DNA from: an uncultured Syntrophomonadaceae bacterium
GTDB lineage: Bacteria; Bacillota; Dethiobacteria; DTU022
Assembly: GCA_964506505.1 (NCBI GenBank)
Contig: CAZDKY010000047.1
Span: 721-64,720, forward strand
DNA: 64,000 nucleotides
Direction of reading: 5' to 3'
The notes under the pieces are model-generated. The model was not told where the DNA came from. It searched no databases and saw only the letters and a list, made by a program, of their open reading frames with translations. The position numbers and the translations under genes were made by a program. Below, piece after piece: positions 11,746 through 53,973 of the stretch. Each line of letters begins with the position of its first letter. The stretch's first letter is position 1.

Positions 11746-11842
11746 GAAACCTGTAATGTCGCTAATCAGCTAAATGATCAGCGCTGGAAGTAAACCGGCT
11801 GATGATTTGGCTTTAGCCCACAAGAAGGAAAAAGCCCCGCGC

Positions 11843-13892: not shown

Positions 13893-13893
13893 A

Positions 13894-15747: not shown

Positions 15748-16160
15748 TTTCTTCACCCTTTCTTCCGCATCGCCGTCCGGCAACTTTAAAAAAGATTAAT
15801 CAGGTTTCTTACAGCTCCGGGAGTTGGCGATCTGCGGAGGCAGGCTGTCCGAATATATATTGTTTATATTATATGTTATTTTCACTGTGACAACCACTCT
15901 AAATTTGCAGATATTTATAATTAAGGGCGGCGGGTGTTAGCCCAGAATTTTTTTACCCTCTTCTCATTGAATTAATATAATCCGCTTACAGTTGAAAATA
16001 TTTTTATTTTACATTAAGATTTCGTAACAGCCGCAAATCTTCAAGCAAAGAGAATGATTTTGGAGTAGTTTTGGAGGATAATATAATGAACTAATAACCG
16101 GGGCAGTGGGAAAAGTATCTGCGGAGTAAGAAACCTGCAGCAGTGGCCAGTCTGCAGAAA

Positions 16161-20702: not shown

Positions 20703-20968
20703 TCCACTTCACACACTATATTTTCTACCTTATTTTATAACTGCTCAGGCATGGACTGCTGTGTCAGGAGGGCTGAAAGAGCCGTCCTTCTGTGTGCCAG
20801 AGGAATGAATGGACGGTTCCCCCCTCTCTCCCGGCGCGCTTTCTGCCCGTTAAAGATATTTCTACTGATTTGTTTGCTCCAGGCTACCCCGGGGTTGAGG
20901 GCAGGTGAAAAAGGCTTAATAACACTATTCACATGATAAAAGTGTGTCAATTCCTCCGCCCCCCTGTG

Positions 20969-23278
20969 TTACAGGTTAATTTGCTGCTGCTGCTGGGAAA
21001 GGCCCTGGTGAGCCACCAGGTGCATGCGCTGCAGGGCCAGCAACAACGAAACTACTGATTCGCCGCCCTGGTTCCGGTTGATGCCGCCGGGATGGAGGCC
21101 GTCGTAGCAGGCCCCGGTGGAAAAATTATAGAGAGGCTGACGAACGTCGTTGCTGCCGAAGAACCAGTTGAAGGCCCATTCCATGTGCCGAAGCCAGTTG
21201 CTGTCGCCGGTGAGCACGTAGGCCTGGTAACAGGCATCGATGAGGGCAGCAGCGTCGACCGGCTGCTGGTCAAAGCGAGCCTTGTTTCCACCCCTCTTGT
21301 ACCACCCGTCATTGCCGATCAGGGAAAGATGGCCATTCTCTTCGCTGGTGTTGACATTGATCAGCCAATGCAGGCTCTGCAGACCAGTTTCAAACATTTT
21401 TTCTTCGTCCAGCATGCCGCCGGCCACCAGAAGGGCCTGTGAGATACGGGCGTTGTCATAAGCAAGAATGTCTTCGCACCAGTGCCAATCGTCGTCGGCA
21501 TTTTTTTGATGAAGATGGTAAATTTTTTCGGCCAGTTCTTTCATGATCTGGCGGACGCGGGCATCACCACCAAAGCGGCGCAGGTAGTAGTTGGCACCGA
21601 TCACAGCAAAAGCCCAGGCTCGCGGCGAAGTAAAGCGAAGCGGGGTATCGATCAGGTCTTTGAAAAGCCTGGTGGCCAGGCCGAGAATATCGTCACCCGG
21701 CGGATGGGCAATGGTATAACCGAGAGCCCAGAGGGTGCGTCCATGGCTGTCCTGGGAGCCACTTTCTTCGAGCCATCGGCGGTCGAAACTCATGAAATTG
21801 CGCATTCGCTTGCGATTTTCATTGTAAGCGTGGTGCAGAAAACTGATATATTTTTTCAGCATCCTGATCACCGGTTCGTCCTTGAAAAGACGCCAGTTCA
21901 TCACAGCAACGATCAGGGCGCGGGCGTTGTCGTCTGTGCAATAGCCATGGGTCCGATCGGGAACAGCGTAAATGGCGTGCTGGAATAGACCGGTGTCGTC
22001 AGTCATGTCGCGCAGGTGTCCCAGGTTCGGTTCTGGCAGGACTGCCCGTTCGGTAACATCGGCACTTTGCAGGGAAGGCACAAACATTTTACTGTAGCTG
22101 AAACGAGCTTGCTCGAAGGCAGTGGCATAGCTGCGAGCAACCTCTTTCCACACCATCTGCCTTCCCTGCTGGTAGGCTTTCTTACGCATGCGGTTACGGC
22201 GGCCTTCGTTACTGAGCAAGTCGATAATTTCATCGGCCATCGCCCCGCTGTCCTTGAAGGGAACGAGACTGCCGCATCCATCGGCTAACAGTTCCTCAGC
22301 GTAGATATAGGGGGAGGAGACAATCGCTTTGCCGCAGGCCAGGGCATAAGCCAGTGTGCCTGAGGTAATCTGCTCGCGATTCAAATAGGGTGTGATATAA
22401 ACATCGGTGGCCACAAGGAACTGGACCAGGCGCTCCAGGGAAACATACTGGTTATAAAAGGCAACGTTTTCTTCAAGACCCATGTCACGGACCATCTTCT
22501 GCAGGCGAAGACGATATTCTTCGCCGTAACGGCGTTTTACCTCGGGGTGGGTGGCACCGAGAATAATATAGAGGGCATCGGGATGCACCTGAACCACTTT
22601 TTCCATCGCCTCAACGGCATACTCCAGGCCCTTGCTCGGACTGAGCAGACCAAAGGTTAGCAGGAGCTTACGCCCCTCGGCCTGGAACTGGTCCTTATAA
22701 TAGGAAGAGTCCAGAAAGGGAACATCGGGTGCCCCGTGGGGAATAAGCAGGATCTTATCGTCAGGCACACGGTAAACCCGCCGGAGAATATCCAGGGCAG
22801 CCTGGGCCATGACCACTACAGAGACGGATTGCTCGCAAACGCGCATCAGCGTTTGCCGCTGGCCTGGAGTAGGATCCTCGAGAACAGTATGCAGGGTGGT
22901 TATGGTCGGTTTTCTAAGGCCGGACAGCAGATAGGTAATGTAGCTTCCATCTTCACCGCCAAATATGCCGTACTCATGCTGGATGGAGACTGCATCTACT
23001 GGAGAGTGGTTGATAAAGTCGGCCGCCCGCTGGTAGTCGGCACGATGCTGGTCGCGAATATGAAAGGTCACTGTGCGGTCGTAATTGAAATTATCGTTGA
23101 TGCTGTTGAGAGCTATTACCTCAAAATTTTTCTGCTCGCTGCTGTCGGCATTTTCGCCGTAGAGCTCTTTCATGCTGTTGAGCAAGTCCCCACAGAAGGT
23201 GGCAATACCGCACTGGCGCGGTGGATAGGTTGAAATAAAAGAGAGCTTGACCGGACGGAGAATTTTACCTGGATGCAT
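20969..23278 (-). CDS. GT4 glycosyltransferase fused to a C-terminal ~370-aa glycosidase-like (six-hairpin / amylo-alpha-1,6-glucosidase-like) domain
   Basis: N-terminal 400 aa is a Glycos_transf_1/GT4 fold (STYPPRQCGIATF ... EGFGL-like region). The C-terminus (DDTGLF...HGYCTDDNARAL...WHWCEDILAYDNARI) looks like an (alpha/alpha)6 glycoside hydrolase; its family is uncertain. Start set at the ATG at 23278 (MHPGKIL; AAGAGG 8 nt upstream). Confidence 0.75.
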   Translation of the reverse strand: MHPGKILRPVKLSFISTYPPRQCGIATFCGDLLNSMKELYGENADSSEQKNFEVIALNSINDNFNYDRTVTFHIRDQHRADYQRAADFINHSPVDAVSIQHEYGIFGGEDGSYITYLLSGLRKPTITTLHTVLEDPTPGQRQTLMRVCEQSVSVVVMAQAALDILRRVYRVPDDKILLIPHGAPDVPFLDSSYYKDQFQAEGRKLLLTFGLLSPSKGLEYAVEAMEKVVQVHPDALYIILGATHPEVKRRYGEEYRLRLQKMVRDMGLEENVAFYNQYVSLERLVQFLVATDVYITPYLNREQITSGTLAYALACGKAIVSSPYIYAEELLADGCGSLVPFKDSGAMADEIIDLLSNEGRRNRMRKKAYQQGRQMVWKEVARSYATAFEQARFSYSKMFVPSLQSADVTERAVLPEPNLGHLRDMTDDTGLFQHAIYAVPDRTHGYCTDDNARALIVAVMNWRLFKDEPVIRMLKKYISFLHHAYNENRKRMRNFMSFDRRWLEESGSQDSHGRTLWALGYTIAHPPGDDILGLATRLFKDLIDTPLRFTSPRAWAFAVIGANYYLRRFGGDARVRQIMKELAEKIYHLHQKNADDDWHWCEDILAYDNARISQALLVAGGMLDEEKMFETGLQSLHWLINVNTSEENGHLSLIGNDGWYKRGGNKARFDQQPVDAAALIDACYQAYVLTGDSNWLRHMEWAFNWFFGSNDVRQPLYNFSTGACYDGLHPGGINRNQGGESVVSLLLALQRMHLVAHQGLSQQQQQINL

Positions 23279-23562
23279 AAAAAACACCTCTTTTTTCAGA
23301 AGTCGGTTATCAGAATACCGTAAGGCCGGGATTTAAAATACCGGCAACTCGGAACAGAATAACTTTTTCTAGAAACTGTTGATCCGGGAAATTTGATCAG
23401 CTTAACATATAGATCGTTTAAATAAGTATAATTCCACTTAAGCATTATTCAAGAGGTTTTCAGAAGTTTTTAAGGTTTATCGCCTGGTGTGCTCAATCTT
23501 TCTGCATAATCGGCTAAAGTCTTCCCAGGTTATATAAATGGTGTAGCAGGCAGGGGTTCTTC

Positions 23563-24693
23563 TCAGGCCCGGCTGTGCAATATTTTTTTATATACTTCGA
23601 TATAGCGATCCACCATCAGGTCGGTGGTAAAGTTTTCTTCCACGTGGCGGCGGCAGTCACGGCGATCGATGCGGTCAAAGCGAGCCAGGGCTACACCGGC
23701 TTCGTCAAGGCTGTCAACCAGGAAGCCGGTCTGGCCATCTTTGATCAGCTCGGGCATAGAGCCCCTGTTAAAAGCAATTACCGGGGTGCCGCAGGCCATT
23801 GCTTCTACTACGCTCAGTCCGAAGGGTTCATCAAAATTTATCAGGTGCAGGAGGGCACCGGCGCGCCCGAGGACCTCTCCTTTTTCAGCCGGTCCTACGG
23901 GGCCGATGTAGTAAACCTGCTCACCATCCAGGTAAGGCTTGACATAGCGGTCGAAGTAGTTCTGATCCTGGATAATGCCGGCAATGACCAAAGGCAGTCC
24001 GGCCTGCTTGGCCAGGCGAATTGATTCATAAGCGCCCTTGTCATGGTGAATACGGCCAAAAAAGAGCAGATAGCCTGGCGCCGGGATCTGCGAGTATTTT
24101 TCCCGGGGGACCTCCGGCGGCCTGAATTCCGGTCTTTTTTCATACTGCTCTTTTTTACGTTTTGGCAGATTAACTTCTGCCGGGTTGCCCTGCGGATCGG
24201 CAAAGAAGGGATATTCTTCAACCGGTATACCGTGATGGACGGTAGCTGCATAATCAAGAGCAGGGTGGCGATCTGCTTCACTGATGGCCACGTAATGGAC
24301 ACGGCCGTTGTAGCGCCGGAAGACCGGAAGGATCCGCGGCGAAGAAAAGCCGTGGATAGTTGTTAAAACCGGGGTATCCACAAGCCCTGAATAGCTGAGG
24401 GGCAGGAAATCGAAATTATTATGAATCAGGTCATAGCAAGAAGCCTCCTCGAAGACGGAGGCAATGTGCAGGCATTCCCACACTTTTGGGTCGAGTTCCG
24501 GGTCTTCCGACCAGGGACGCGGCGCTACCGCCTTCAGGTAGCCGGCGGTAATGGAATCGGCAGTGGCATAGAGTGTAACTTCTATTCCACGCCGGATTAA
24601 ACCTTCGGTAAGCACACTGACAACCCACTCCCAGGGTCCATAATGCCGGGGTGGGGTGCGCCAGGATATGGGTGACAGCATGGCAATTTTCAT
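23563..24693 (-). CDS. GT4-family glycosyltransferase
   Basis: GT-B fold with the C-terminal EPFGLSVVEAMACGTPVIA motif typical of retaining GT4 enzymes; 376 aa. Confidence 0.85.
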   Translation of the reverse strand: MKIAMLSPISWRTPPRHYGPWEWVVSVLTEGLIRRGIEVTLYATADSITAGYLKAVAPRPWSEDPELDPKVWECLHIASVFEEASCYDLIHNNFDFLPLSYSGLVDTPVLTTIHGFSSPRILPVFRRYNGRVHYVAISEADRHPALDYAATVHHGIPVEEYPFFADPQGNPAEVNLPKRKKEQYEKRPEFRPPEVPREKYSQIPAPGYLLFFGRIHHDKGAYESIRLAKQAGLPLVIAGIIQDQNYFDRYVKPYLDGEQVYYIGPVGPAEKGEVLGRAGALLHLINFDEPFGLSVVEAMACGTPVIAFNRGSMPELIKDGQTGFLVDSLDEAGVALARFDRIDRRDCRRHVEENFTTDLMVDRYIEVYKKILHSRA

Positions 24694-24723
24694 CTCACTG
24701 GAGAAGACAAAAACCTCCTCTCT

Positions 24724-25698
24724 CTAAGTAAGACAGAAACCTTCATCCTCGGAATCGTTGCAGTTCAAAAGATAACTGACCAGGTCTTTCAATTTAGCTG
24801 AAGCCAGGCAGACGCTGGAATCGGCTGCCCCGTAATACATGATCAATTCATCGTTGATATGGTCGTAAATTGTCCCTGTGGGGAAGGTTACACCGGGGAC
24901 GTCACCGACCCGTTCGTACGGTTCGTGGGGGCCAAAAACCCACTGGTCGCAGCGTTTCCTGATTTTCCACGGTTCATCCAGGTCGAGCAGGGCCAGACCG
25001 ACCCGGTAGAGGCTCCCGGAAGCAGTATCACGCACACCGTGATAGATGATCAGCCACCCTTCGTCGGTTTCAATGGGCGGCGGCCCAAGGCCGACGCGAG
25101 TGGTGTCCCACCAGCCGGGGCGGACAGGCAGCAATATTTTATGTTCACCCCAGTGGATCATGTCGGGCGAATTGGCAATCCAGATGTGGGCTTCACCGCG
25201 GATAATGGGCCTGTGTATGAGCATGTAGCGGCGGTTGATCTTGCGCGGGAAAAGCGAGGCATCCTTGTCCTCGGGAGGGAGCATGGCCCCGCGGCGCTTG
25301 AAGGTAACCAGATCACTGCTCAGGGCCAGGGAAACAACCGGCCCGTCCTTGGAAAAGGAAACATAGGTAACGGCATACTTTCCCAGGTCTTCAAGCCAGA
25401 CGATGCGGGGATCTTCAATGCCCCACCGTTCTTCGTCGTAATTGGAGTTGGGCATGAGCGCGGGCTGATTGTCGATCTGCCAGTTTGTTTTGCCGTCCTC
25501 ACTGCGGGCAAAGGTGAAATGGGAAAAACCCCGCATGTCCTCGACGCGGACCAGCAGGTGGACCTTGCCTTCATGCTTGATGGCAGCCGGGTTAAAGGTA
25601 GCATTGACCGGGTAAGGCCAGCAGTCCGGAAAAAGGATCGGATTTCCCTCAAATCTTTCAAATATTCCGGTTGGCCTGTAGTGGTTATGATAGATCAT
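24724..25698 (-). CDS. GH130-family glycoside phosphorylase/hydrolase (beta-mannoside phosphorylase-like, former DUF377)
   Basis: Five-bladed beta-propeller signatures (FNPAAIKHEGKVHLLVRVED, GIEDPRIV, GWLIIYHG). Ends in TAG, and the reading frame continues into the downstream GT4 gene. Confidence 0.8.
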   Translation of the reverse strand: MIYHNHYRPTGIFERFEGNPILFPDCWPYPVNATFNPAAIKHEGKVHLLVRVEDMRGFSHFTFARSEDGKTNWQIDNQPALMPNSNYDEERWGIEDPRIVWLEDLGKYAVTYVSFSKDGPVVSLALSSDLVTFKRRGAMLPPEDKDASLFPRKINRRYMLIHRPIIRGEAHIWIANSPDMIHWGEHKILLPVRPGWWDTTRVGLGPPPIETDEGWLIIYHGVRDTASGSLYRVGLALLDLDEPWKIRKRCDQWVFGPHEPYERVGDVPGVTFPTGTIYDHINDELIMYYGAADSSVCLASAKLKDLVSYLLNCNDSEDEGFCLT

Positions 25699-37727: not shown

Positions 37728-39224
37728 CTATTTGGCGGACAGGGGTCCCTGTGGGAGTTCACTGATCCCGAGCTCCTTCATTATTGTGCCGGTAGATCTG
37801 TCGAGCTCTTCTTCCCTTTCTTTGGCCATGGGTGCCGGGATGTGGCTGCCGCGGATCTCTTCAACCTGTTCCTGAGCACGCTGGAAGGCATTCTTTCTAC
37901 CTTCATCTTCCCAATTCTTGCGGTCATTACGGTCTATGATCGCCGAGGGGAGGTATGGCTCTTTTTTAAACCATTTCAAGGTGTGCTCCGATTCAAGATA
38001 GTTTCCGCCGGGACCGAGTTCTTCGATCACATCAACAGCCAGCGATTCAGCAGAGCAGTCGATACCGCGGTGCATGCGCAGGGCCATGCCGCAGACTTCG
38101 TTGTCGATGGCCAGTTTCTCTAGGCTGAAAGTATTGACAAAATCAAGGCCTCCCGGTCCGGAAATCATGTTGATCCCGGCCAGCTGAGCGATGATTCCGC
38201 TCATTCCTGTTTCTATACCGGCCTGGGTATCGATGGTTTTCGAATCGCTGAGGGCTGCGTAAGTGTGGGTCGGCAGCCCAAAGTATTTACCCATCTGGGA
38301 GTAAGCAGCGGCGATCATGGTCGCTTCGACGGCGCTGAAGGGCGTTGTCCCAAAGCGCATATCAAACTGCACCGGGGCCCCGCCGTAGACCACCCGGGCA
38401 CCTGGATTGACGCACTGGGCCAGGACCAGGCCACTGAGGGTTTCCACAGTATGCAGGAGCAGAGATCCGCCCAGGGTGACAGGGCTGCCCGCTCCAGGCA
38501 TGGGCAGGGCTACCGTTTCCAGGGGCAGGTCATTGCGGGCACAGTCGATGATATTCTGGGCACTGATATGGGTCCACTTCAGGGGCGGCGACGGGCAGAT
38601 ATCAAATACGGCGCGCGGTTTTTCGCGCAACTCGTCGAGTCCGCCTACCGCTGCGGCGAGCATGTCGCGCATGTGAATGATCCCGGGGACACTGAAGGCC
38701 CCGGTGATGATCGCTTTCGGCGAATTCTTCAGGCAGAGATAGAGGCGGTAACTGTCAACAATCGACTTGGGCACATCGTAGCAAACCACAGAAGTCGACT
38801 GGAGGCGAATATTATCCAGGGCATCGTTAACCCTGCTGATGTCCACCATGTCTTTTGAACTGGTCTGACGGACAGTCTCGCCGTCCGATTCCATGAACTT
38901 AATCATGGATGAGCCGGGATCGAAATAGACATTGTCGTCGCTCATATCGGCAGCCAGTGAACCGTTGCGGTCATAAATTTTAAAGGAAGGCGGGGCCTGA
39001 TTAACGGCATCGTCGACCATGCGTGTGCTTATCCTGACCACCTTTTTCGCAGAATCGATTTTTGCCCCGTGATCCCGCAGGATATTGAGGGCCTCTTCCG
39101 ACTCGAACTTGACCCCGGTATTTTCGAGGACATGCAGAGCCTTCTGGTGAATAATTTTGATCTGTTCATCGCTGATCAGGCGCAGTTTGGGTTGGCTATT
39201 AAAACAGTATCTTTTTGGTTCCAT
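37728..39224 (-). CDS. MttB-superfamily methyltransferase without pyrrolysine (quaternary-amine/glycine-betaine:corrinoid methyltransferase-like, COG5598)
   Basis: About 498 aa and fully open with no internal amber. N-terminus EQIKIIHQKALHVLENTGVKFESEEAL is typical of the MttB TIM-barrel family. Ends in TAG. Start set at the ATG at 39224. Confidence 0.8.
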   Translation of the reverse strand: MEPKRYCFNSQPKLRLISDEQIKIIHQKALHVLENTGVKFESEEALNILRDHGAKIDSAKKVVRISTRMVDDAVNQAPPSFKIYDRNGSLAADMSDDNVYFDPGSSMIKFMESDGETVRQTSSKDMVDISRVNDALDNIRLQSTSVVCYDVPKSIVDSYRLYLCLKNSPKAIITGAFSVPGIIHMRDMLAAAVGGLDELREKPRAVFDICPSPPLKWTHISAQNIIDCARNDLPLETVALPMPGAGSPVTLGGSLLLHTVETLSGLVLAQCVNPGARVVYGGAPVQFDMRFGTTPFSAVEATMIAAAYSQMGKYFGLPTHTYAALSDSKTIDTQAGIETGMSGIIAQLAGINMISGPGGLDFVNTFSLEKLAIDNEVCGMALRMHRGIDCSAESLAVDVIEELGPGGNYLESEHTLKWFKKEPYLPSAIIDRNDRKNWEDEGRKNAFQRAQEQVEEIRGSHIPAPMAKEREEELDRSTGTIMKELGISELPQGPLSAK

Positions 39225-39277
39225 TTTGATTGCCTCCTTTCTCAAAAAAGAGCGGCAATAAGTTAATAAGTTAATAC

Positions 39278-39313
39278 ACAGGGTAGCTGAATGATAAACA
39301 GGGTAGCTGAATG
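39278..39313. repeat. 16-bp direct repeat ACAGGGTAGCTGAATG x2 (20-bp spacing) between kamA and the mttB-family gene
   Basis: Seen in sequence; the second copy ends at the kamA TAG stop. It is preceded by AAGTTAAT x2. Confidence 0.6.
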
Positions 39314-40573
39314 CTAGTTTTTTCCTTTTTTGATATCCGGTTCCATGGCCACGGCCCGGCCGTTAAGCAGGCCGGCAACGCCCAGTTCGTACTGAGTATG
39401 TTTGCCGCCGCAGAGCGGGCAAACTTTGTCAGGATCGACCATGCGGTGCGGTTCGGTGTAGGTATAGGTACCGCCTTCAAAATTGCGCAGGACTACCCGG
39501 TATGGTGACTGGCTGATCAGGTACTGGGGCATGACAGGGATCTTGCCGCCTCCGCCGGGAGCGTCGACAACAAATGTAGGCACGCCCATGCCAGTGGTGT
39601 GCCCGCGCAGGTTTTCGATGATCTCCAGGCCGGCGGCCACGGAGGTGCGAAAATGCTCGATACCCTGCGAGAGGTCGCACTGGTAAACATAGTACGGTTT
39701 GACCCGGATTTTAAGCAGTTCATGGCTCAGCTTTTTCATCACCTGCGGGCAGTCGTTGACTCCGGCCAGCAGTACGGACTGGTTGCCCAGGGGGATACCG
39801 GCATCAGCCAGGCGTGCGCAGGCAGCCGCCGATTCAGGGGTCACTTCTTTCGGGTGATTGAACTGAACGTTGATGTAGACAGGATGATATTTCGCCAGCA
39901 GCTTACAGAGTTCAGGGGTGATGCGCTGGGGCATAACTACCGGAGTACGGGTGCCGAAACGAATTATTTCAACGTGCTCGATGGAACGCAGTTCTTTTAG
40001 CAGGTATTCAATTAGCTCATCGCCGATCAGGAGGCCGTCACCGCCGGAAAGAAGGACGTCGCGCACCACGGGAGTGTGGCGGATGTAGTCGATGGCAGCA
40101 TCAATCTGCTCACGGGTGCGGGCCTTATCGGTGGCTCCGGCCAAACGCCGACGGGTGCAGTGGCGGCAGTACATGGAGCACTGGTCAGTAACCAGGAATA
40201 GAACACGGTCCGGGTAACGGTGGGTCAGTCCGGTAACCGGCGAGTCTACATCTTCATGCAGGGGATCGGTCATGTCCGATACCGAGCTGTGGGTCTCCAG
40301 CGCGGTGGGTACTGCCTGTTTGCGCACCGGGCAATTGGGATCATCCGGATCGATCAGGGTCGCATAGTAAGGAGTAATAGCCATGCGGAATTTCTGAAGG
40401 CATTTTTCAACGCCCTCCGCTTCTTCATCGCTCAGATCAATTAGCTGTTTCAGCTTATCAAGGGTGGTAATGCGGTTGCGAACTTGCCAGCGCCAGTCAT
40501 CCCATTGTTCGGGAGTGACATCCTTCCAGAGTTCTATTTCACGGTAATCTCTCATTGTCAATTCTCCTTTCAA
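39314..40573 (-). CDS. kamA: L-lysine 2,3-aminomutase (radical SAM)
   Basis: Near-colinear with B. subtilis KamA (EIELWKDV..., CSMYCRHCTRRR radical-SAM cluster motif, PLP region); ends in TAG. Confidence 0.92.
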   Translation of the reverse strand: MKGELTMRDYREIELWKDVTPEQWDDWRWQVRNRITTLDKLKQLIDLSDEEAEGVEKCLQKFRMAITPYYATLIDPDDPNCPVRKQAVPTALETHSSVSDMTDPLHEDVDSPVTGLTHRYPDRVLFLVTDQCSMYCRHCTRRRLAGATDKARTREQIDAAIDYIRHTPVVRDVLLSGGDGLLIGDELIEYLLKELRSIEHVEIIRFGTRTPVVMPQRITPELCKLLAKYHPVYINVQFNHPKEVTPESAAACARLADAGIPLGNQSVLLAGVNDCPQVMKKLSHELLKIRVKPYYVYQCDLSQGIEHFRTSVAAGLEIIENLRGHTTGMGVPTFVVDAPGGGGKIPVMPQYLISQSPYRVVLRNFEGGTYTYTEPHRMVDPDKVCPLCGGKHTQYELGVAGLLNGRAVAMEPDIKKGKN

Positions 40574-41017
40574 TTATTTCAAATGGAGTTCGTATGCTAC
40601 CGAATCGGTGGTGAAACCGTGCTTTTCGTAAAGATTGCGCGCTTCTTTGTTAACATTCAGGGCAGTCAGCTCCAGACGGCAAAGATTATGCTCTCTGGCA
40701 ACTTCAATAATGCGTCTGATCAATAGATCAGCCAACCCGCGGCAGCGATAAGCCGGATCGACAACAACATCTTCGACGTGACCGTACCATTGGCCGTTCC
40801 AGGTTGAAAAGTGTCCCATGTGCAGGCTGGCAGTACCGGTAACCACTCCCTCGATGAGGATGATAAAGATGAGGACCCTCTGGGGATGTCCCATGCAGTA
40901 TTGGAAACTGCGCTTCAACATTTCCGGTGAAACCTCTTTGCGATAAAAGTCGAGGAGTATTTTCCAGAGGCGGCATACCGCTGTTTCATCTGCTGCTGTG
41001 GCCAATCGTATCTCCAT
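40574..41017 (-). CDS. GNAT N-acetyltransferase, putative beta-lysine N-acetyltransferase (AblB-like by context)
   Basis: GNAT motifs (YRCRGLADLLIRR, YEKHGF). Its stop abuts the kamA start with no gap, the same pairing as ablA/ablB and yodP/kamA. At 147 aa it is shorter than the characterised AblB/YodP. Confidence 0.6.
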   Translation of the reverse strand: MEIRLATAADETAVCRLWKILLDFYRKEVSPEMLKRSFQYCMGHPQRVLIFIILIEGVVTGTASLHMGHFSTWNGQWYGHVEDVVVDPAYRCRGLADLLIRRIIEVAREHNLCRLELTALNVNKEARNLYEKHGFTTDSVAYELHLK

Positions 41018-41263
41018 ATTTTATTGTTCCCTTTCCGGTCCGTTATTCGCTACCTTTATTTTAACAAATAAAAGATCATTTAGTAAATAAGATTAGATTC
41101 GTTAATTGCCTTATCCTGCTTTTATATTTTTATTAATTATCCGGAAAAATTTCTTTGTCAGAAATAGTTTCCTGCAAATTTGTTTTCAGAAAAAATTGAG
41201 GTAAAATGTTTTGTTTAGATTTATCAATAATTTTAAAAAACCGCTATTAAACCGCTTATACCG

Positions 41264-41294
41264 AAAAAAAACCGGCCCGAAGGCCGGCTTTTTA
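41264..41294. terminator. bidirectional rho-independent terminator
   Basis: A8-CCGGCC-cgaa-GGCCGG-T5; lies downstream of nhaC. Confidence 0.65.
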
Positions 41295-41354: not shown

Positions 41355-42926
41355 TTATTTCTTCTGACTTGCTTCGATTGATTCGGCATCCGCGGTCGTT
41401 CTGCCCACCAGACGGACAAAGATGATCAGGACAATGATCCCGAGGACTATCGAAATCAACGGATGTACGCCCAGGCCGGCCGGGATAAAGCCAAATATAC
41501 CGGACACTATCGCCCCGGTGAGGGCATAGGGAATCTGGGTGCGCACATGGTCGATATGGTCCGATCCGGCACCGGTGGAAGAAAGAATGGTGGTGTCGGA
41601 TAGCGGCGAGCAGTGGTCGCCGAAGATCGCTCCGGTCAGCACGGCAGCCATGGTGGGGATAATAAATTGTTCCCCGCCGAGGGCAAAGGCAACCGGAACA
41701 GCCAGAGGAATGACGATCCCCATTGTGCCCCAGGAGGTGCCCATGGCAAAGGCCATGAAACAGGAAATGATGAAGATCAGGAGGGGCATAACCGCTATGC
41801 CTAATCCTGTCTTTTCGACGACACTGACCAGGTACTCAGCGGCTCCCAGTTCACCGGAGACATAGCTGAGAGACCAGGCCAGAACCAGGATGATCAGGGC
41901 CGGGAAAACCGACTTGGCCCCGTTGATCAGGGTATCGATAGCCTGCTGCAGGGGAACTATCCTCTGGGCGAGGACCATAACGATTGTTACAAGGGCTCCC
42001 AGGCTGGAAGACCAGAGCAGCACGACTGTGGAGTCGGCATTGCCGAAAGCTTCCATGATCCCCACTTCTCCCCCGCCTCCATGGATATAGAGGCCGACGA
42101 AGGTGGCGATAATAATCACCAGGACAGGGATGACGAAGTTGTACCAGCGCATCGGTGTGCCTTCTTCCGGCTGGAGGACTGCCGTGTCGGTGGCCGACAG
42201 CGGCTCCGCTCCTTCACGCAGCAGCTGACCGGTGGTGCGGGCCCTTACTTCAGCATTGTACATGGGACCGAAGTCCTTCATGGTAATAGCCAGGATCAGC
42301 ACCAGGGCAATGGCAAAGATGCTATAAAAACGGTAGGGAATGCTCTGCAGGAAAATCAGGTAAACCGGCACTTCTTCCATACCGATTGCGGCATAGCCTT
42401 CCCCGATAACCCCGAGCTCGAAACCGATCCAGGTCGAAATGAGAGCTACTGTAGCAATAGGCGCCGCGGTGCTGTCAATGATATAAGATAGCTTTTCACG
42501 GGATACTTTCACCGCGTCAGTAATGGGGCGGGCAGTGTTGCCGGCAATAATACAGCTGGAGTAGTCATCAAAGAAGATGATCATCCCCATCAGCCAGGCG
42601 GCAATCATCCCGCCGCGGGCGCTTTTCACTTTCTTGGTCAGGGCGTCGGCGATTGCCTGAGCCCCGCCGGCCTTGGTTACCAGACCAAGGGTTCCCGCGA
42701 TAATCATGGTAAAAATAAGGATCGCTGCATACCATGGGTCGGCAGCGCTTTCCAGCATGTAGGTATCAACAGAACGGAAAAAGCCGGTAATCGGATTCGC
42801 ATGCAGGAAGGATGCTCCAAGCCAGACGGCAATAAAAAGGGAAATAATTACCTGGCGGGTTGCAATAGCCAGTACAATAGCCAGGAGCGGCGGTAAAATA
42901 GATAAAAATCCATATTCCATAAACAA
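41355..42926 (-). CDS. nhaC: NhaC-family Na+/H+ antiporter
   Basis: 523-aa polytopic membrane protein with an NhaC-like N-terminus and topology. Confidence 0.8.
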   Translation of the reverse strand: MFMEYGFLSILPPLLAIVLAIATRQVIISLFIAVWLGASFLHANPITGFFRSVDTYMLESAADPWYAAILIFTMIIAGTLGLVTKAGGAQAIADALTKKVKSARGGMIAAWLMGMIIFFDDYSSCIIAGNTARPITDAVKVSREKLSYIIDSTAAPIATVALISTWIGFELGVIGEGYAAIGMEEVPVYLIFLQSIPYRFYSIFAIALVLILAITMKDFGPMYNAEVRARTTGQLLREGAEPLSATDTAVLQPEEGTPMRWYNFVIPVLVIIIATFVGLYIHGGGGEVGIMEAFGNADSTVVLLWSSSLGALVTIVMVLAQRIVPLQQAIDTLINGAKSVFPALIILVLAWSLSYVSGELGAAEYLVSVVEKTGLGIAVMPLLIFIISCFMAFAMGTSWGTMGIVIPLAVPVAFALGGEQFIIPTMAAVLTGAIFGDHCSPLSDTTILSSTGAGSDHIDHVRTQIPYALTGAIVSGIFGFIPAGLGVHPLISIVLGIIVLIIFVRLVGRTTADAESIEASQKK

Positions 42927-43806: not shown

Positions 43807-44451
43807 TTAACTTTTTAGCAGTTCCAGGACTTTATTTACCCCTTCAGCGGCATCTTCGGCATAGGCATCAGCACCGATCTTGTCAGCCCAGCGCTGGGTG
43901 CAAGGGGCACCGCCGATTATGGTTTTATATTTTTCCCGCATGCCGCGCTTGCGAAGCTCTGCCTCGAGCTTCTCCTGGTTGGGCATGGTCGTGGTCAGCA
44001 GGGCGCTGGTGCCGATCACATTTGCACCGTTCTTTTCAGCTTCCTCAATGATTTTTTCTACCGGGACATCCCGGCCCAGATCGATTACCTCCACACCCTG
44101 GGTCTGGATCAGGGCCAACGCAATGCCCTTGCCAATGTCGTGCACGTCTCCTTCCACGGTGGCGAATACCATCTTGCCCACTGTTTTGGACGCCTTGTCT
44201 TCCAGGGCGGAATTAAGAATCTCGACCGCTGCTTTCATCGCTTCCGAAGCGAGGATCATTTCCGGCAGGAAAACTTCTCCCCTGCTGAAGAGGTCCCCGA
44301 TTTCCCGGATGCCCACGCTGTAGCCATCAGTCAGTACTTTCACCGGATCGAGGCCTTCATCGAGGGCTTGTTCAGCGACGGCAACTGCCTTTTCCTGATC
44401 GATATCGAGAATTGATTGTTTGGCTTCATTTAAAATTGTTTTTAGGCTCAA
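43807..44451 (-). CDS. mtbC: cobalamin-binding corrinoid protein for a methylamine methyltransferase (MtbC-like)
   Basis: B12-binding_2 helical cap followed by a Rossmann B12-binding domain with the DxHxxG motif (EGDVHDIGKG); 20 nt downstream of mtbB. Confidence 0.8.
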   Translation of the reverse strand: MSLKTILNEAKQSILDIDQEKAVAVAEQALDEGLDPVKVLTDGYSVGIREIGDLFSRGEVFLPEMILASEAMKAAVEILNSALEDKASKTVGKMVFATVEGDVHDIGKGIALALIQTQGVEVIDLGRDVPVEKIIEEAEKNGANVIGTSALLTTTMPNQEKLEAELRKRGMREKYKTIIGGAPCTQRWADKIGADAYAEDAAEGVNKVLELLKS

Positions 44452-44470: not shown

Positions 44471-45859
44471 TTAGAATCCGGCTTTTTCTTTGAAAAGCTC
44501 GACCGAGTTTATAGTGATACCCAGCACCCGGGCTATATTTATTTTGGCTTCGATTCCCTTGGGGGCCTGGTTGAGCTCAAAAGGCCGACCCAGGTTCAAT
44601 TTCTTCCGTATTTCAAACATACGGTCCGAGTCGCTCAAATCGATGGGCTCGACACCCAGTTTTTCGGCGACATACTTTTTGGCTTCGTCAATTTTCATGC
44701 TTTTCGCCAGCTGCATCCGCAGAACCAGATCTCCGGCTGTGCGTATGCCGCTCATACATGAAGAAAGAGTATGGGCCACTTCGAGGCTGAAAGGATCGCC
44801 CACGCCTATCTACAATCCGTCGGCTTTGCCGATTTCAATCAGGGCCTTGTCGGCCCTGGTGACGGCATCAATCGGCGGAATCTCGGTCATCGGTACTCCC
44901 CCGACGCCCATGCCCACATTAATATGAAGAGGTATTTCCGCCACTTCGCTGCAGGCCTTGATAAAGGTCACCGTGCGGGCCAGGTTCCAGGGAAAAGACT
45001 TGCTGGTGTTGGTATTGACAACCGGCCCGAAGATATTGGCACCTGCTTTCTCGGCCAGCTTTACCTGCTTGTGGGGATAGAGCCCGGCAATCCTCGTGCC
45101 TGCGTATTCCAGCTTGCCGTGCATGCCGAGGACGAATTCTCCGGCAGCGCCGAACTCCACACCCAGGTTGGGATATTTCTCCTTGATCTGCTCGGTAGCC
45201 AGCAGGCTGGCCTGGTAATCGGCATCGCCGGAAGCGCCACAGGTATCAAGGTTAATCCCGTCAGCCCCGGCAGCGTACATCTCCCCGGCTACAAAAACCA
45301 TATCGCGGACGGCATGTTCTACCGCTTCTTCCTGGGCAGCCCTTGCCTCGTCGATTTTAGCCATGGGCAGCAGTTCCGACCAGTTGTCAACCGGGCCGTC
45401 CGGCTTGGTATAAAGACCGAGGTTGGGCATGGAACCGTAGAGAACCGGCATCACCGCATTCAGCTGGGCCAGTTCCATAACCGGCGTTTCGTTATGCACG
45501 ATCTGTTTGACCGCCTTGTAGCTGTAATCCATATTGCCGATATCAACCGAATCGGCGCCCAGAACTTTCTCACTGATCATCACCGAGGTGGAACGCTCCA
45601 TGGCGATATTGGCATGATAGGTCATCTTGCAACTGCCGGAATCGGAGGTGTTGACCACTTCACGACCCCGCTCGACCCCGACGATGTTTCCGGGCATGGT
45701 AACGATTTCGAAAATGTAATCCATTTCTTCCGCAGTCAGTTCGGGTATCTTCCCGCGGTCGGCGGCATCTTTAACACCCTGGAGTATATCTTCCTTGATT
45801 TCCTCCGCGCTCATATAGACGCCCGAGCCGTCGCCCATGCGTGTAAAATATTTATCCAA
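44471..45859 (-). CDS. mtbB: dimethylamine:corrinoid methyltransferase MtbB, pyrrolysine-containing, with an in-frame UAG at 44812..44810
   Basis: Track ORFs 44810..45931 and 44471..44803 are in the same frame, separated only by TAG and two codons (...IGKADGL-TAG-IGVGDPFSLEV...). The joined 462-codon product matches MtbB along its length: N-terminus (M)DKYFTRMGDGSGVY resembles the archaeal MATEYALRMGDGKRVY; GMGVGGVPM is conserved near the amber position; the UAG falls at about codon 350, against about 356 in Methanosarcina MtbB. TTG start at 45859 with AAAGGAGGG 8 nt upstream. A corrinoid-protein gene follows. Confidence 0.8.
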
Positions 45860-46078
45860 CGCAAAAACCCTCCTTTGCCTGTTATTTAGTGGGTAGCTCT
45901 CTTCGCAGAGGAGCCCTGGTAAAAGGATCATGGCTCCGGCCGGGAAAGAGTACCGGCAGGCCTTTCTTCAGGTCCATCCGCAATTCTTTAACTGTTGTTC
46001 TTCAGCGAGCAATTCTTAATCCCACTGTTTCAGTATAATTGATGGCCGGCAAAAAAACAATTGCCCATTTAGTTAATC

Positions 46079-50350: not shown

Positions 50351-50715
50351 GATCTTGACACCACTTTCACGATCTGTCCCGCCTCCTCTTTCTGCTCTTT
50401 ATTCGCCTGCCTTTTATCCTTCCCTGCCTGCACCTTTGATAAATTTTTCGGTCATCAGTTAAGCAATACAGGTAACATACTGAATGTAATTATTTTTCGG
50501 CATTTAAAGATCCCTCTCCCAATGTTATTGTATATAATGATCAGTGAAAGGTCGTGTTATCCAGGAACCATTGTAACCCATTTTTTTCTTTGGGTTTCAG
50601 GAAAAATGAGAAAACCCTTTCAATTTTAACAGTCAAGATGGATAAGCGTGATAATAAAACAGCCTGTCCATGGATGCATTCCGGTCATGAAAGGGTAGTC
50701 CGCAGGGGGTGCAAA

Positions 50716-51924
50716 ATGAATTTCAACGAGATCCTTGATACGGTAACAAACAAGGAGGTCTATGAACTGACGACCAATCTGGTGAATATTCCCAGCTACA
50801 CGGGCCTGATTAACCAGGAGCTGGCAGTAGCCCGCTACATCAAAGAGTTTTTTGAATCCGAAAACATCGAGGTCTTTTTTCAAGACCCGCTGCCGAACAG
50901 GCCCAATGTAATTGCCGTAATCAGGGGCTGCGGCAAAGGAAAGTCGCTGATGCTGAGCGGCCATCTTGATACGGTGCCACCTTACAATATGACCGAAGAT
51001 CCTTTCTCGGGAAAGATCGAAGGGGGAAAACTTTATGGCAGGGGCAGCTGCGATATGAAAGGGGCCCTGGCCTGCATGATGACGGCCATGGCAGCCCTGC
51101 GGCGAAGCGGGACGAGGCTGGCCGGTGATCTTATTTTCGCCGGTGTAATCAACGAGGAACAGCAGAGTGAAGGTACCGAATACATTGTGCGGAACGGGCC
51201 GGGTGCCGATGCAGCCATCGTTGGCGAGCCGACAGGCATGGATATCGCTGCCGGACACCGCGGTCTGGAATGGATAGACATTACCGTGATCGGAAAAACC
51301 ACGCATGGCGGAACTCCCACCGAAGGTGTCAACGCTATTTCCAAGGCGGCCGAACTGATTTACAAAATCGAGACTGAATTGATCCCTAAATTCAAAAATC
51401 GCCGACACCCATTGATAGGCGAGCCGCTTCTCAATTTCGGGGTGATCAAGGGCGGCGACCAACCCAGCAGTGTGGCTGGGTTCTGCCGGATTTCAATCGA
51501 CCGGCGCTGGCCCCCGCTGGAAACATTTAGCGGGATCATGGAGGAACTTGAAGAAATCATCGGGGAGCTGCGAAGTGAAGATCCCAATTTCCGGGCCGAG
51601 GTCAAACGCTACTTCGAGGGCTCTGATATGATGTTGCACAAACCGCTGGAAATAGACCTTAATCACCCGTTAGTTGAAACGCTGCAAAAAACCCTGCGGA
51701 TCACAGGCCAGAAAGAACCGCAAATTGTTTCTTTCCCGGCCTGGACCGACGCTTCTCTGCTAAGCAATTACGCAGGCATTCCCAGCGTAGTCTGCGGCCC
51801 CGGGTTCCTGAAAGACGCCCACACCGAAAACGAGCACGTCCATCTCAGCCAGCTGGAAGAAGGATACAGAGCTTACACTTTGGGTGCTCTCGATTTCTGT
51901 GGAATGGAAGAAAACATTGACTGA
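50716..51924 (+). CDS. M20-family metallopeptidase (ArgE/DapE-like deacylase)
   Basis: GHLDTVPP metal-site motif with an M20 dimerisation domain. Start set at the ATG at 50716 (MNFNEILD), since the track ORF adds an implausible 54-aa leader. Confidence 0.85.
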   Translation: MNFNEILDTVTNKEVYELTTNLVNIPSYTGLINQELAVARYIKEFFESENIEVFFQDPLPNRPNVIAVIRGCGKGKSLMLSGHLDTVPPYNMTEDPFSGKIEGGKLYGRGSCDMKGALACMMTAMAALRRSGTRLAGDLIFAGVINEEQQSEGTEYIVRNGPGADAAIVGEPTGMDIAAGHRGLEWIDITVIGKTTHGGTPTEGVNAISKAAELIYKIETELIPKFKNRRHPLIGEPLLNFGVIKGGDQPSSVAGFCRISIDRRWPPLETFSGIMEELEEIIGELRSEDPNFRAEVKRYFEGSDMMLHKPLEIDLNHPLVETLQKTLRITGQKEPQIVSFPAWTDASLLSNYAGIPSVVCGPGFLKDAHTENEHVHLSQLEEGYRAYTLGALDFCGMEENID

Positions 51925-52026: not shown

Positions 52027-52073
52027 CCCGGCAGGGTATCTATTCTTCTTCGGCCGGCCTGCGGGTTTTTTTT
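52027..52073 (+). terminator. rho-independent terminator between convergent genes
   Basis: Stem CCCGGCAGG ... CCTGCGGG followed by T8. Confidence 0.5.
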
Positions 52074-53973
52074 AGCTGTTTTTCCCGGCTAAATCTTTCA
52101 TGGAAATGATCAGGTGGATAATCCCGCTTTCCCACTTGCGTTCATACTGCAGGCCCAGCTTTTCAATAAGGTGAAAAACAGCTGTATTATCAGGCAAAAT
52201 ATCGACAACGACATTATGAAGACCTTCGCTCTTGGCACTGGTGATCATGTGGGATAGCATTTCAAAACCGATACCCATTTTCTGGTAATCATCGCGCACC
52301 ACGACGGATACCTCGGCCGACATGGTATCTTCCATCAGGCAGTACTGAGCCATGCCCACCACTTTTTCCCGTCCTTCCTGCTCAATGATGGCCAGGATAA
52401 CCATCTCCCTGGTGTAATCGATGACTACATAATGCTTCTGCAGCTCTTCATGCGGGAGATAGCGCCGGACTGACATGAAGCGACGGTAGATACTTTCATC
52501 AGAAAGGGAATAGTGAAATTCCTTGATCAGCGGTTCGTCGCTGATTTTAACAGGCCGCAGCAAGATCCGCTGGTTGTGTTTGGTCGTGCGGTAGGTTTCG
52601 AGATAAGCGGGGTATTCACCTTTTTCACCGGGCAGATAAGCCTGATCCTCGTAAATTAGTTTCCTTTTCTTCGCTTCTTCAATCAGCCAGGGCTGGAATT
52701 GCGGATGAGCTATGGTGATCAGGGACATGGCCCGCTCGCGGATGTTTCTGCCGTGCAGGTGAGCAATGCCGTATTCGGTAACCACGTAATGAAGATCACC
52801 ACGGGTCATGGTCACCCCCGCACCCTCTGCCAGGGCAGGAACGATACGCGAGCTTTTACCGTCGCGGCTCGTCGATTGAAGGACAAGGATGTTTTTTCCC
52901 TTTGGAGCAAGCACAGCCCCGCGCATGAAATTGGCCTGTCCGCCAACGCCACTGTAAAAAGTGGAACCAATCGATTCAGCGGAAGCCTGCCCGCTCAAAT
53001 CAATTTCCAGGGCACTGTTTATAGCGGTCATATGGTCGTGGGCGGCAATGACCAGCGGGTTGTTGGTGTAATCGATTTCCCGGAAAAGGATGGCCGGATT
53101 GTCGTTTATGTAGTCGTAGGTTTCCCGCGAGCCCATGCAGAAGGAAGCCACCGTTTTACCGCGGTTACGCTCCTTGCGGCTGTTATCGACAGCGCCGCTT
53201 TTCAGCAGTTCCACCAGGCCGTCACTGAGCAACTCGGTATGAACTCCCAGGTTTTTTTTCTCGGACAGGGCGGCCACGGTAGCATTGAGCACTCCGCCGT
53301 AACCGATCTGAATGGTATCACCATCTTCCACGATCCTGGCCACATAATGGCCGATTTTTTCTGCTATTTTCTCTTCCACGAGCGGTGGGGGATACTCGAG
53401 CAGCGGCTCATCATGCCAGATGAGATGATCAATCTGCTCCACGTGGAGAAAGGTATTGCCGTGCACCCTCGGCATGTTTGCATTGATCTGAGCAATGACT
53501 GTATCGGCACTTTCGACTGCTGCCCTGGTTATATCCAGGCTTATCCCGAGGCTACAGTAACCGTGTTCATCTGGTGGTGAAACCTGAATTAGAGCTACAT
53601 CCACTGTCACCTGCCGCAGCCTGAAAAGGGAGGGAACATCGGAGAGTAAAATGGGTGTGTAATCCGCATCGCCACTGTTAACAGCCTGCCTCGTGTGTCG
53701 GCTGATAAAGAAAGAGTTCTGGCGAAAATTGCTCTTCAATTTGGCATCGCTGTACGGAGCCACACCGAGGGACCAGACATGGAGAATCTCGGTGTCAAAA
53801 AAAGCCTTGGGGTTTGATTCTACATACCGGACCAGCGTATTAACCAGGTACTGCGGTTCCCCGCAACCGGTGGAGATAAAAATGCGGTCGCCGGCCTTGA
53901 TCTTGCCAAATATGTCATCAGATGAAGCAACTTTTTGCGGGTATCTTTTCTTCAGTTCATCAGCTGTAAGCAC
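52072..53973 (-). CDS. acetyl-CoA hydrolase/transferase-family protein fused to a C-terminal GNAT acetyltransferase domain
   Basis: N-terminal ~430 aa has the AcetylCoA_hydro/CoA-transferase fold (GIGGVLNA..., GSRETYDYINDNP). C-terminal ~190 aa is GNAT (QKMGIGFEML...). One 633-aa ORF. Confidence 0.8.
   Translation of the reverse strand: MLTADELKKRYPQKVASSDDIFGKIKAGDRIFISTGCGEPQYLVNTLVRYVESNPKAFFDTEILHVWSLGVAPYSDAKLKSNFRQNSFFISRHTRQAVNSGDADYTPILLSDVPSLFRLRQVTVDVALIQVSPPDEHGYCSLGISLDITRAAVESADTVIAQINANMPRVHGNTFLHVEQIDHLIWHDEPLLEYPPPLVEEKIAEKIGHYVARIVEDGDTIQIGYGGVLNATVAALSEKKNLGVHTELLSDGLVELLKSGAVDNSRKERNRGKTVASFCMGSRETYDYINDNPAILFREIDYTNNPLVIAAHDHMTAINSALEIDLSGQASAESIGSTFYSGVGGQANFMRGAVLAPKGKNILVLQSTSRDGKSSRIVPALAEGAGVTMTRGDLHYVVTEYGIAHLHGRNIRERAMSLITIAHPQFQPWLIEEAKKRKLIYEDQAYLPGEKGEYPAYLETYRTTKHNQRILLRPVKISDEPLIKEFHYSLSDESIYRRFMSVRRYLPHEELQKHYVVIDYTREMVILAIIEQEGREKVVGMAQYCLMEDTMSAEVSVVVRDDYQKMGIGFEMLSHMITSAKSEGLHNVVVDILPDNTAVFHLIEKLGLQYERKWESGIIHLIISMKDLAGKNS

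Follow-up and report, generated by a model that had tools for sequence, protein, structure and literature searches.

We analysed a 64,000-nucleotide stretch of DNA, hereafter the window, from an uncultured Syntrophomonadaceae bacterium (contig CAZDKY010000047.1, positions 721 to 64,720), in which a gene for a small acetyltransferase of the GNAT superfamily is located immediately upstream of kamA, the gene for lysine 2,3-aminomutase. A preliminary description of the window had given the correct positions of both genes, which are on the minus strand, and had proposed that they form a two-gene module of the ablA/ablB or yodP-kamA type, which makes the osmolyte N-ε-acetyl-β-lysine. We found that the pair is accompanied by amine demethylases that depend on vitamin B12 in about 50 related genomes, and that the surrounding genes favour an inducible catabolic system over an osmolyte module.

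Gene content of the locus

The GNAT and kamA genes are followed on the same strand by mttB-A, a gene for a methyltransferase of the MttB superfamily (Table 1). The GNAT gene is preceded by an AT-rich spacer of 337 nucleotides that holds a sigma-70-like site, and a terminator scan revealed no terminator between GNAT, kamA and mttB-A. The mttB-A gene begins 89 nucleotides after kamA with a ribosome-binding site of its own, and the convergent genes iorAB and paaK close the unit on the 3' side of mttB-A. By these features, GNAT, kamA and mttB-A are one predicted operon in the window. A scan of the whole window against Rfam gave a sole match, the PYLIS element of mtbB; at the operon it detected neither a lysine riboswitch nor an RNA element of another kind.

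In the mechanical list of open reading frames, kamA extends over 39314..40573 (minus strand, 419 amino acids) with a TTG start at 40573 that adjoins the GNAT stop codon, and the preliminary description accordingly let kamA begin at the base after that stop. The junction reads TAA-TTGAAAGGAGAATTGACA-ATG, with AAAGGAG located 8 nucleotides 5' of the ATG at 40555, which is 18 nucleotides past the GNAT stop codon. Because this ribosome-binding site precedes the ATG and the homologue alignments all begin at that methionine, ATG 40555 rather than TTG 40573 is the likely start of kamA. The tight coupling of the 2 genes was thus confirmed and the start was revised, so that GNAT and kamA would lie close together with no overlap.

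It was also noted that the spacer between kamA and mttB-A contains a direct repeat and a conserved block. In a 96% identical relative (L026, 7702..7809; loci are here given L numbers), the repeat is expanded to a unit of about 36 nucleotides, and the block, TTATTAACTTATT or TTATTAAC, is common even to a more distant relative (L045, about 11750..11815). The repeat and the block may represent an operator or an internal promoter.

Table 1. Features of the window that are discussed in the text, with positions counted from its first nucleotide
Feature	Position	Strand	Evidence
GNAT gene, 147 amino acids, first gene of the predicted operon	40574..41017	-	Open reading frame list, Pfam PF00583
kamA, 413 amino acids from the likely start ATG 40555	39314..40555	-	TIGR03820, alignment to 2A5H, ribosome-binding site
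kamA-mttB spacer	39225..39313	-	Direct repeat CATTCAGCTACCCTGT in 2 copies and conserved block TTATTAACTTATT; no terminator
MttB-A, 498 amino acids, third gene of the predicted operon, non-pyrrolysine methyltransferase of the MttB superfamily	37728..39224	-	PF06253, 3.3e-86
Transporter of the NhaC/ArcD family, separate transcript here	41355..42926	-	PF03553, 2.6e-62; weak ArcD and Tet(35) matches
Intrinsic terminator after the nhaC-like gene, GC-rich hairpin followed by 8 T	41272..41287	-	Sequence, hairpin scan
Sigma-70-like promoter candidate, TTTACT-18-TAAAAT with an upstream TG	41058..41087	-	Consensus match alone
Corrinoid (B12-binding) protein	43807..44451	-	Orthologues with PF02607 and PF02310; 77% to 97% identity in syntenic loci
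mtbB, dimethylamine methyltransferase, in-frame TAG at 44810-44812	44471..45931	-	ADGL-O-IGVGDP; PYLIS_2
M20 deacylase of the ArgE/DapE family	50554..51924	+	33% identical to Bacillus YodQ; 10 kb from kamA

The KamA protein scored 595 bits against the lysine 2,3-aminomutase model TIGR03820 (cutoff 525) and could be aligned end to end, over residues 5 to 406, with the lysine 2,3-aminomutase of C. subterminale (2A5H, 622 bits). It has kept the motifs CSMYCRHC, QCDLS and VVDAPGGGGK, the latter 2 with the equivalents of Asp293, Asp330 and Lys337 of 2A5H. We take the 2 aspartates to be those that bind the ε-ammonium group of lysine and that are missing from glutamate 2,3-aminomutase. Glutamate and arginine 2,3-aminomutase were both rejected as identities, since KamA falls below the cutoffs of these models and the lysine-type aspartates are retained, and the score was also below the cutoff of the EpmB model. 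KamA is thus, by sequence, a canonical lysine 2,3-aminomutase, as originally proposed, and the predicted formation of β-lysine is solid. We also noted that the C-terminal CxCxxC run of 2A5H (CNCDVC), which is presumably part of a zinc site in the clostridial enzyme, reads KVCPLC in KamA, with the first cysteine replaced by lysine and the other 2 kept.

MttB-A scored 422 bits against TIGR02369, below the cutoff of 525, and is encoded by an uninterrupted open reading frame with leucine at the pyrrolysine position. The same position is occupied by alanine in MttB-B, a second MttB protein encoded in related loci. With no in-frame UAG and a score below the cutoff, MttB-A was dismissed as a pyrrolysine-containing trimethylamine methyltransferase. 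It was likewise dismissed as a glycine betaine methyltransferase, since the residues corresponding to Y97, R312, H348 and F356, which bind glycine betaine in MtgB (PMC13080624), are S, H, G and V.

Two genes of corrinoid-dependent metabolism are located upstream of the nhaC-like gene, mtbB for a dimethylamine methyltransferase and a gene for a corrinoid protein. The latter is a possible methyl acceptor for both MttB-A and MtbB, and no second corrinoid protein was found in the window. The mtbB gene, which is syntenic in loci of the window type, contains a PYLIS_2 element (Rfam, 47.2 bits, 44713..44812) and is interrupted in frame by an amber codon where pyrrolysine is canonically inserted, and the organism therefore decodes UAG as pyrrolysine. 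A search for tRNA-Pyl and pyl genes found no tRNA in the window, and hence no tRNA-Pyl. The stop codon of kamA is also TAG, and read-through would extend the protein by at most 16 residues.

The GNAT protein has a single domain, which scored 75 bits (E = 7.5e-21, cutoff 20.7) against Acetyltransf_1 (PF00583), and an intact acetyl-CoA loop (R91-C-R-G94-L-A96). An AF2 model with a pLDDT value of 95.4 displayed a single GNAT fold, and the best fold match was the 1,3-diaminopropane acetyltransferase DpA (8A9N/8A9O), with a TM score of 0.86, a root-mean-square deviation of 1.6 to 1.8 Å and 28% to 30% identity. The other nearest solved relatives in sequence and fold were AAC(3)-XI, thialysine N-ε-acetyltransferase, SSAT2, and streptothricin acetyltransferases. 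Matches to named GNAT families in NCBIfam were all weak, at most 42 bits, and included streptothricin acetyltransferases, which acetylate a β-lysine moiety. Because the nearest relatives thus act on diamines, thialysine and the β-lysine moiety of streptothricin, it is chemically plausible that the window GNAT acetylates β-lysine. It was rejected as RimI, with a score of 37.7 bits against TIGR01575 (cutoff 86.4), and the RimI-like label in public data is wrong; the true rimI gene of the window is located beside tsaD at 4427..4933 and scored 126.6 bits.

Relatives of the GNAT formed a tight family of about 190 clusters, with 44% to 97% identity among the listed matches and lengths of 143 to 167 amino acids for nearly all listed members, all of which were from uncultured genomes. 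The block SLHxGHxSTW...YGHxED was invariant across the alignment of the family. The comparison with AblB/YodP was made with authentic ablB-ablA pairs, taken from records of Bacillus velezensis and Cytobacillus. These AblB proteins are 277 to 290 amino acids long, so that the window GNAT is indeed about half their size, and have a domain ahead of the GNAT domain that makes up their N-terminal half and has no counterpart in the 147-residue protein. The AblB model TIGR03827 (cutoff 205 bits) gave the window GNAT no match even at E ≤ 10 in a scan in which the proteins of B. velezensis and Cytobacillus scored 303 and 286 bits. A BLASTP comparison with YodP was not significant (E = 2.3), hhalign gave a probability of 8.8% that covered the generic GNAT core alone, and the sequence identities were only 17% to 19%. 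An STW motif that hhalign placed in both the GNAT and the Cytobacillus AblB was not considered further, as it is not conserved in the AblB of B. velezensis. These comparisons contradict the suggestion of a minimal or divergent AblB and set the GNAT apart as the founding member of a distinct, sequence-defined family unrelated to AblB. If it has the same activity, it would be an analogue of AblB and not a homologue.

Conservation and regulation of the GNAT-kamA pair

A profile for the GNAT family, scanned against species-representative genomes, recovered 38 loci, of which 36 were informative for adjacency. The GNAT gene is followed by kamA in 34 of the 36 loci, with spacers of 18 to 239 nucleotides (median 66), and the pair was also present in 11 metagenome loci that had been retrieved with a different gene. 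Because the adjacency recurs in both sets, the pairing is not due to chance. Most of the carriers are metagenome-assembled genomes assigned to "Syntrophomonadaceae" or Bacillota, while single loci were assigned to Limnocylindrales, Desulfovibrio, and Ignavibacteriales. The sources of the carriers are sediments of soda lakes (Mono Lake ML8_D; CSSed, T1Sed, and SL_*KL samples), digesters including high-ammonia ones, and a deep mine, and the GNAT family was also found in a soil metagenome-assembled genome. The window itself was a 100% match to "delta proteobacterium ML8_D".

The common layout among the 38 genome loci was NhaC>GNAT>KamA>[MttB-B>CoP>]MttB-A(>CoP), where CoP is a corrinoid protein. 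In loci of the window type, mttB-A is located directly after kamA, with a spacer of 4 to 9 nucleotides in 4 of them (L003, L006, L008, and L014). The two-gene unit that had been proposed for the window did not survive these comparisons, since mttB-A follows the pair without a terminator in the window and at such short distances in its relatives. In other loci, kamA is followed by genes for MttB-B, a corrinoid protein, MttB-A, and a second corrinoid protein. A gene of the NhaC/ArcD family was found upstream of GNAT in most genome loci that reach far enough upstream, and importers of several families are encoded close to the start of the cluster or as its first genes, with APC or MFS transporters directly before GNAT and Opp-type or Pot-type ABC transporters further upstream.

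The linkage was also retained in rearranged and duplicated clusters. In the Ignavibacteriales locus (L037), genes for a corrinoid protein, MttB-A, and KamA are located on one side of a gene for a regulatory activator. The opposite side holds genes for GNAT, MttB-B, a corrinoid protein, a pterin-binding methyltransferase, and a Liv-type ABC transporter. On a single contig (CAYXKD010000010.1, loci L032 and L038), we found 2 tandem KamA-MttB-B-CoP-MttB-A modules about 5 kb apart. One of these is headed by an intact GNAT gene and the other by a GNAT remnant (residues 28 to 78, 39% identity); the module with the remnant is preceded by genes for a third MttB protein and a proline-racemase-like protein. 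Two loci contained GNAT with MttB-B but no kamA (L011 and L079), and one contained kamA with MttB genes but no GNAT (L063).

To obtain loci independently of the GNAT query, metagenome loci were retrieved separately with a profile for MttB-B. All 17 MttB-B orthologues of at least 72% identity for which upstream sequence was available had either kamA (15) or GNAT (2) directly upstream. None of the members of a sister clade with 59% to 65% identity had kamA or GNAT. Among the loci of this clade, L072 (1..8401) contained genes for NhaC, a YodQ-like M20 protein (41% identity), and an ADI/DDAH-like protein, and L077 (3263..12624) contained genes for Opp-type ATPases, a C45/AAT-type hydrolase, and an amidohydrolase. 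These enzymes, which process amide or guanidino groups, suggest that the sister clade belongs to similar systems whose substrates are basic amino acids with other modifications, for example methylarginines or amide conjugates. In 2 further loci, genes for both subunits, A and B, of a 3-oxoacid CoA-transferase with 45% to 51% identity to YodS/YodR directly follow MttB-B and its corrinoid protein (L065, 4060..5344; L066, 2014..3301), and in L065 these are located between the MttB-B-CoP genes and a set consisting of pyrrolysine-type mtbB, a corrinoid protein, and MttB.

A sigma-54 activator with PAS, AAA+, and HTH_8 domains was encoded in 14 loci. The -24/-12 motif TGGYAY-N5-TTGCW occurred 39 times in 687 kb, compared to about 10.5 occurrences expected, and 38 of the 39 sites were on the strand of the cluster. 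Sites were located upstream of GNAT (10), MttB (9), NhaC (6), and APC (2) genes. As judged from these motifs, the GNAT-kamA pair and the mttB genes are co-regulated by sigma-54 in one branch of the carriers, while the branch to which the window belongs appears to use a sigma-70-like promoter.

Candidate functions of the operon

Linkage to MttB proteins, corrinoid proteins, importers, and a sigma-54 activator with its promoters is the signature that would be expected of a substrate-induced catabolic system. We favour such a system because the linkage outlasts rearrangement and duplication, because it is recovered with an independent query, and because one branch combines sigma-54 control with importers. 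The explanation that we prefer, with a confidence that stops a little short of an even chance, is that the operon in the window is a reduced form of a conserved and probably inducible system for the anaerobic use of a methylated, lysine-type amine.

According to this model, a cationic amino acid derivative, most simply an N-ε-methylated lysine such as trimethyllysine, would be imported by a transporter that varies between loci (NhaC/ArcD-type, APC, MFS, or ABC). The non-pyrrolysine protein MttB-A, together with MttB-B where present, would move methyl groups to corrinoid proteins and onwards to tetrahydrofolate, possibly with the participation of a pterin methyltransferase where one is encoded nearby. 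KamA would interconvert the α- and β-forms of the lysine skeleton, and the GNAT would acetylate one free amino group, whereby the charge is neutralised and the reversible mutase reaction is pulled forward. Acetylation might also yield a suitable zwitterionic substrate for the methyltransferase, of the type common to all known substrates. We infer what the substrate is, in which order the steps take place, and which amino group is acetylated. A more specific and more doubtful proposal is that KamA and the small GNAT are dedicated helpers of 2 new non-pyrrolysine MttB proteins in a novel cobalamin-dependent anaerobic pathway that would harvest methyl groups from a lysine-derived amine (trimethyllysine or β-lysine betaine), with isomerisation and acetylation serving to prepare or trap the substrate. 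The opposite direction, a corrinoid-dependent methylation of acetyl-β-lysine into a betaine, was set aside on the reasoning that thermodynamics disfavours the passage of a methyl group from methyl-corrinoid to a tertiary amine.

Several observations weigh against a role in the use of methylated lysine. KamA probably acts on lysine or β-lysine itself rather than on trimethyllysine, because both aspartates for a primary ε-ammonium group have been kept, in which case either the methyl groups would have to be removed first or the 2 branches of the pathway are separate. The non-pyrrolysine MttB enzymes are only known to take one methyl group off a quaternary amine (PMC13080624), and the library of papers that we searched held none that ties MttB enzymes to lysine derivatives, an aminomutase, or trimethyllysine. 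The MttB-A orthologues at 60% identity (Desulfitibacter; L041/L042) are encoded without kamA or GNAT, in loci that carry other MttB paralogues or pyrrolysine-type mtbB/mttB genes and do not reveal the substrate. In the window, no sigma-54 promoter was found near 37.7 to 43 kb, and there is no sigma-54 activator at the operon and no pterin methyltransferase. Four loci contained the GNAT-kamA pair with no MttB gene within reach (L004, L010, L020, and L036). Finally, most of the carriers belong to one lineage, so that the synteny is partly inherited rather than independently selected.

The compatible-solute module of the preliminary description is an unlikely but serious competitor. Here, KamA would produce β-lysine and the GNAT, as a non-homologous analogue of AblB, would convert it into N-ε-acetyl-β-lysine, which would accumulate under salt, alkaline, or ammonia stress, and the MttB and corrinoid neighbours would serve other osmolytes such as betaines. 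The adjacency of the pair in nearly all informative loci, its persistence in the 4 loci that lack MttB, and the relatives of the GNAT that acetylate lysine-like amines are all consistent with this, as is the precedent of ablAB (PMC9049628). Many carriers also come from soda-lake sediments and high-ammonia digesters, and in L045 the operon is followed by a gene for trehalose-6-phosphate synthase/phosphatase. Nothing specifically supports an osmolyte role, however, and the context favours catabolism: the GNAT is unrelated to AblB, a methyltransferase gene is located inside the operon, importers are present although synthesis from the cell's own lysine needs none, and in one branch GNAT-kamA and the mttB genes are both under the control of a PAS-containing sigma-54 activator acting through its promoters. 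Furthermore, GNAT or kamA can each pair with MttB without the other, the family extends to a deep-mine sample and a soil genome, and the product of yodP-kamA in B. subtilis was reported not to contribute to defence against osmotic stress (Muller 2011, as cited in PMC9049628). We found no literature linking Dethiobacter-type bacteria to acetyl-β-lysine.

A further alternative, which we consider distinctly improbable, is lysine catabolism via acetyl-β-lysine, as in the Pseudomonas B4 route or the yodT-kamA operon of Bacillus, in which case the later transamination, cleavage, and deacetylation would be encoded elsewhere and the linkage to MttB would reflect a shared catabolic island and regulator. 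The Bacillus operon consists of genes for an aminotransferase, CoA-transferase A/B, an M20 peptidase, ablB, and ablA, in that order, and scattered counterparts were seen in the YodS/YodR-like subunits of L065 and L066, the YodQ-like protein of L072, the M20 deacylase of the window, and an M20 gene that adjoins kamA in L004 and L010. However, the conserved neighbours of GNAT-kamA include neither an aminotransferase nor a CoA-transferase nor a cleavage enzyme, none of the partner genes of the Bacillus operon adjoins the pair in the window, where the M20 gene is on the opposite strand and distant from kamA, and both the strict association with MttB-B (17/17) and the short spacers between kamA and mttB-A point to a closer tie than a shared island. 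The genes for lysine fermentation proper, kamD/kamE, kdd, and kce, had been reported as absent, and a Pfam scan of 34 open reading frames of the window agreed with this and also detected no kal; nor were such genes among the recurrent neighbours in 80 loci.

It is very improbable that the GNAT acts on something unrelated to the product of KamA, such as a protein N-terminus or a toxic amine, with a functionally loose position before kamA: the RimI-like source annotations, the weak matches to named families, and the occurrence of either gene without the other would fit, but the window has its true rimI gene elsewhere, and the family is unusually conserved and confined to this gene context in the loci examined.

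Non-pyrrolysine MttB homologues number in the thousands and for the most part lack a known substrate, the only ones assigned being glycine betaine, proline betaine, carnitine, γ-butyrobetaine, and phosphocholine (PMC13080624); the linkage described here is a lead to a lysine-derived one. If the more specific proposal, with KamA and the GNAT as dedicated helpers of 2 MttB proteins, is true, the MttB superfamily would gain a further class of substrates, and a radical-SAM aminomutase would have a physiological role not seen before. The strict linkage of 2 MttB paralogues to a lysine aminomutase and to an acetyltransferase of their own may also point to substrate priming, of which this would be the second case in the superfamily. 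For annotation, kamA beside a GNAT gene in saline or high-ammonia metagenomes should not automatically be taken as an ablAB osmolyte pair, and the GNAT family that public data call RimI-like is something different.

Elsewhere in the window, the minus strand contained a gene for a 633-residue protein (52072..53973) in which an acetyl-CoA hydrolase/transferase is fused to a Pat-like GNAT domain at the C-terminus and the transferase part of which resembles butyryl-CoA:acetate CoA-transferase (288 bits, under the cutoff). Also on the minus strand are a mannose-related cluster (17439..25698), with genes for 2 GT4 glycosyltransferases, a GH130 mannoside phosphorylase, and a 1,087-residue fusion of mannose-1-phosphate guanylyltransferase/isomerase with phosphomannomutase, and 2 adjoining genes for amine-oxidase-type flavoproteins (555 and 629 amino acids) followed by a DAO-family oxidoreductase gene (12255..17282).

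Comparison with known systems

The arrangement in the window resembles ablAB and yodP-kamA in that a gene for lysine 2,3-aminomutase adjoins a gene for a GNAT-fold acetyltransferase, and the KamA proteins of both pass TIGR03820. As in yodP-kamA, the acetyltransferase gene comes first. It differs in that the predicted operon continues into a gene for an MttB methyltransferase, and in that the relatives of the pair are located in a putative sigma-54 regulon with corrinoid proteins and importers. The GNAT itself is more similar to DpA and to the thialysine and diamine N-acetyltransferases (8YV7, 2BEI), which are likewise compact proteins of about 150 amino acids with small cationic amines as substrates. 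The identity to these enzymes is only about 30%, and the gene context is wholly different.

The MttB superfamily has assigned members for trimethylamine, glycine betaine, proline betaine, carnitine, γ-butyrobetaine, and phosphocholine (PMC13080624). MtgB (2QNE/9YCE) and the pyrrolysine-containing MttB (7XCL) could be aligned over their full length with both MttB-A and MttB-B (E values of 1e-60 to 1e-77) and share with them the TIM-barrel family PF06253, whereas none of the 4 glycine-betaine-binding residues of MtgB was kept in MttB-A. The closest parallel to the proposed pathway is the MthK/MthB/MthC/MthA system of Eubacterium limosum, in which MthK phosphorylates choline before the MttB-family protein MthB acts on it (PMC12155760). 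In both systems, genes for an MttB-superfamily protein and a corrinoid protein accompany a gene for an enzyme that modifies a small molecule, and this enzyme alters, or in the present case would alter, the charge of the amine before demethylation. In the system described here, the part of the kinase would be taken by a radical-SAM aminomutase together with an acetyltransferase.

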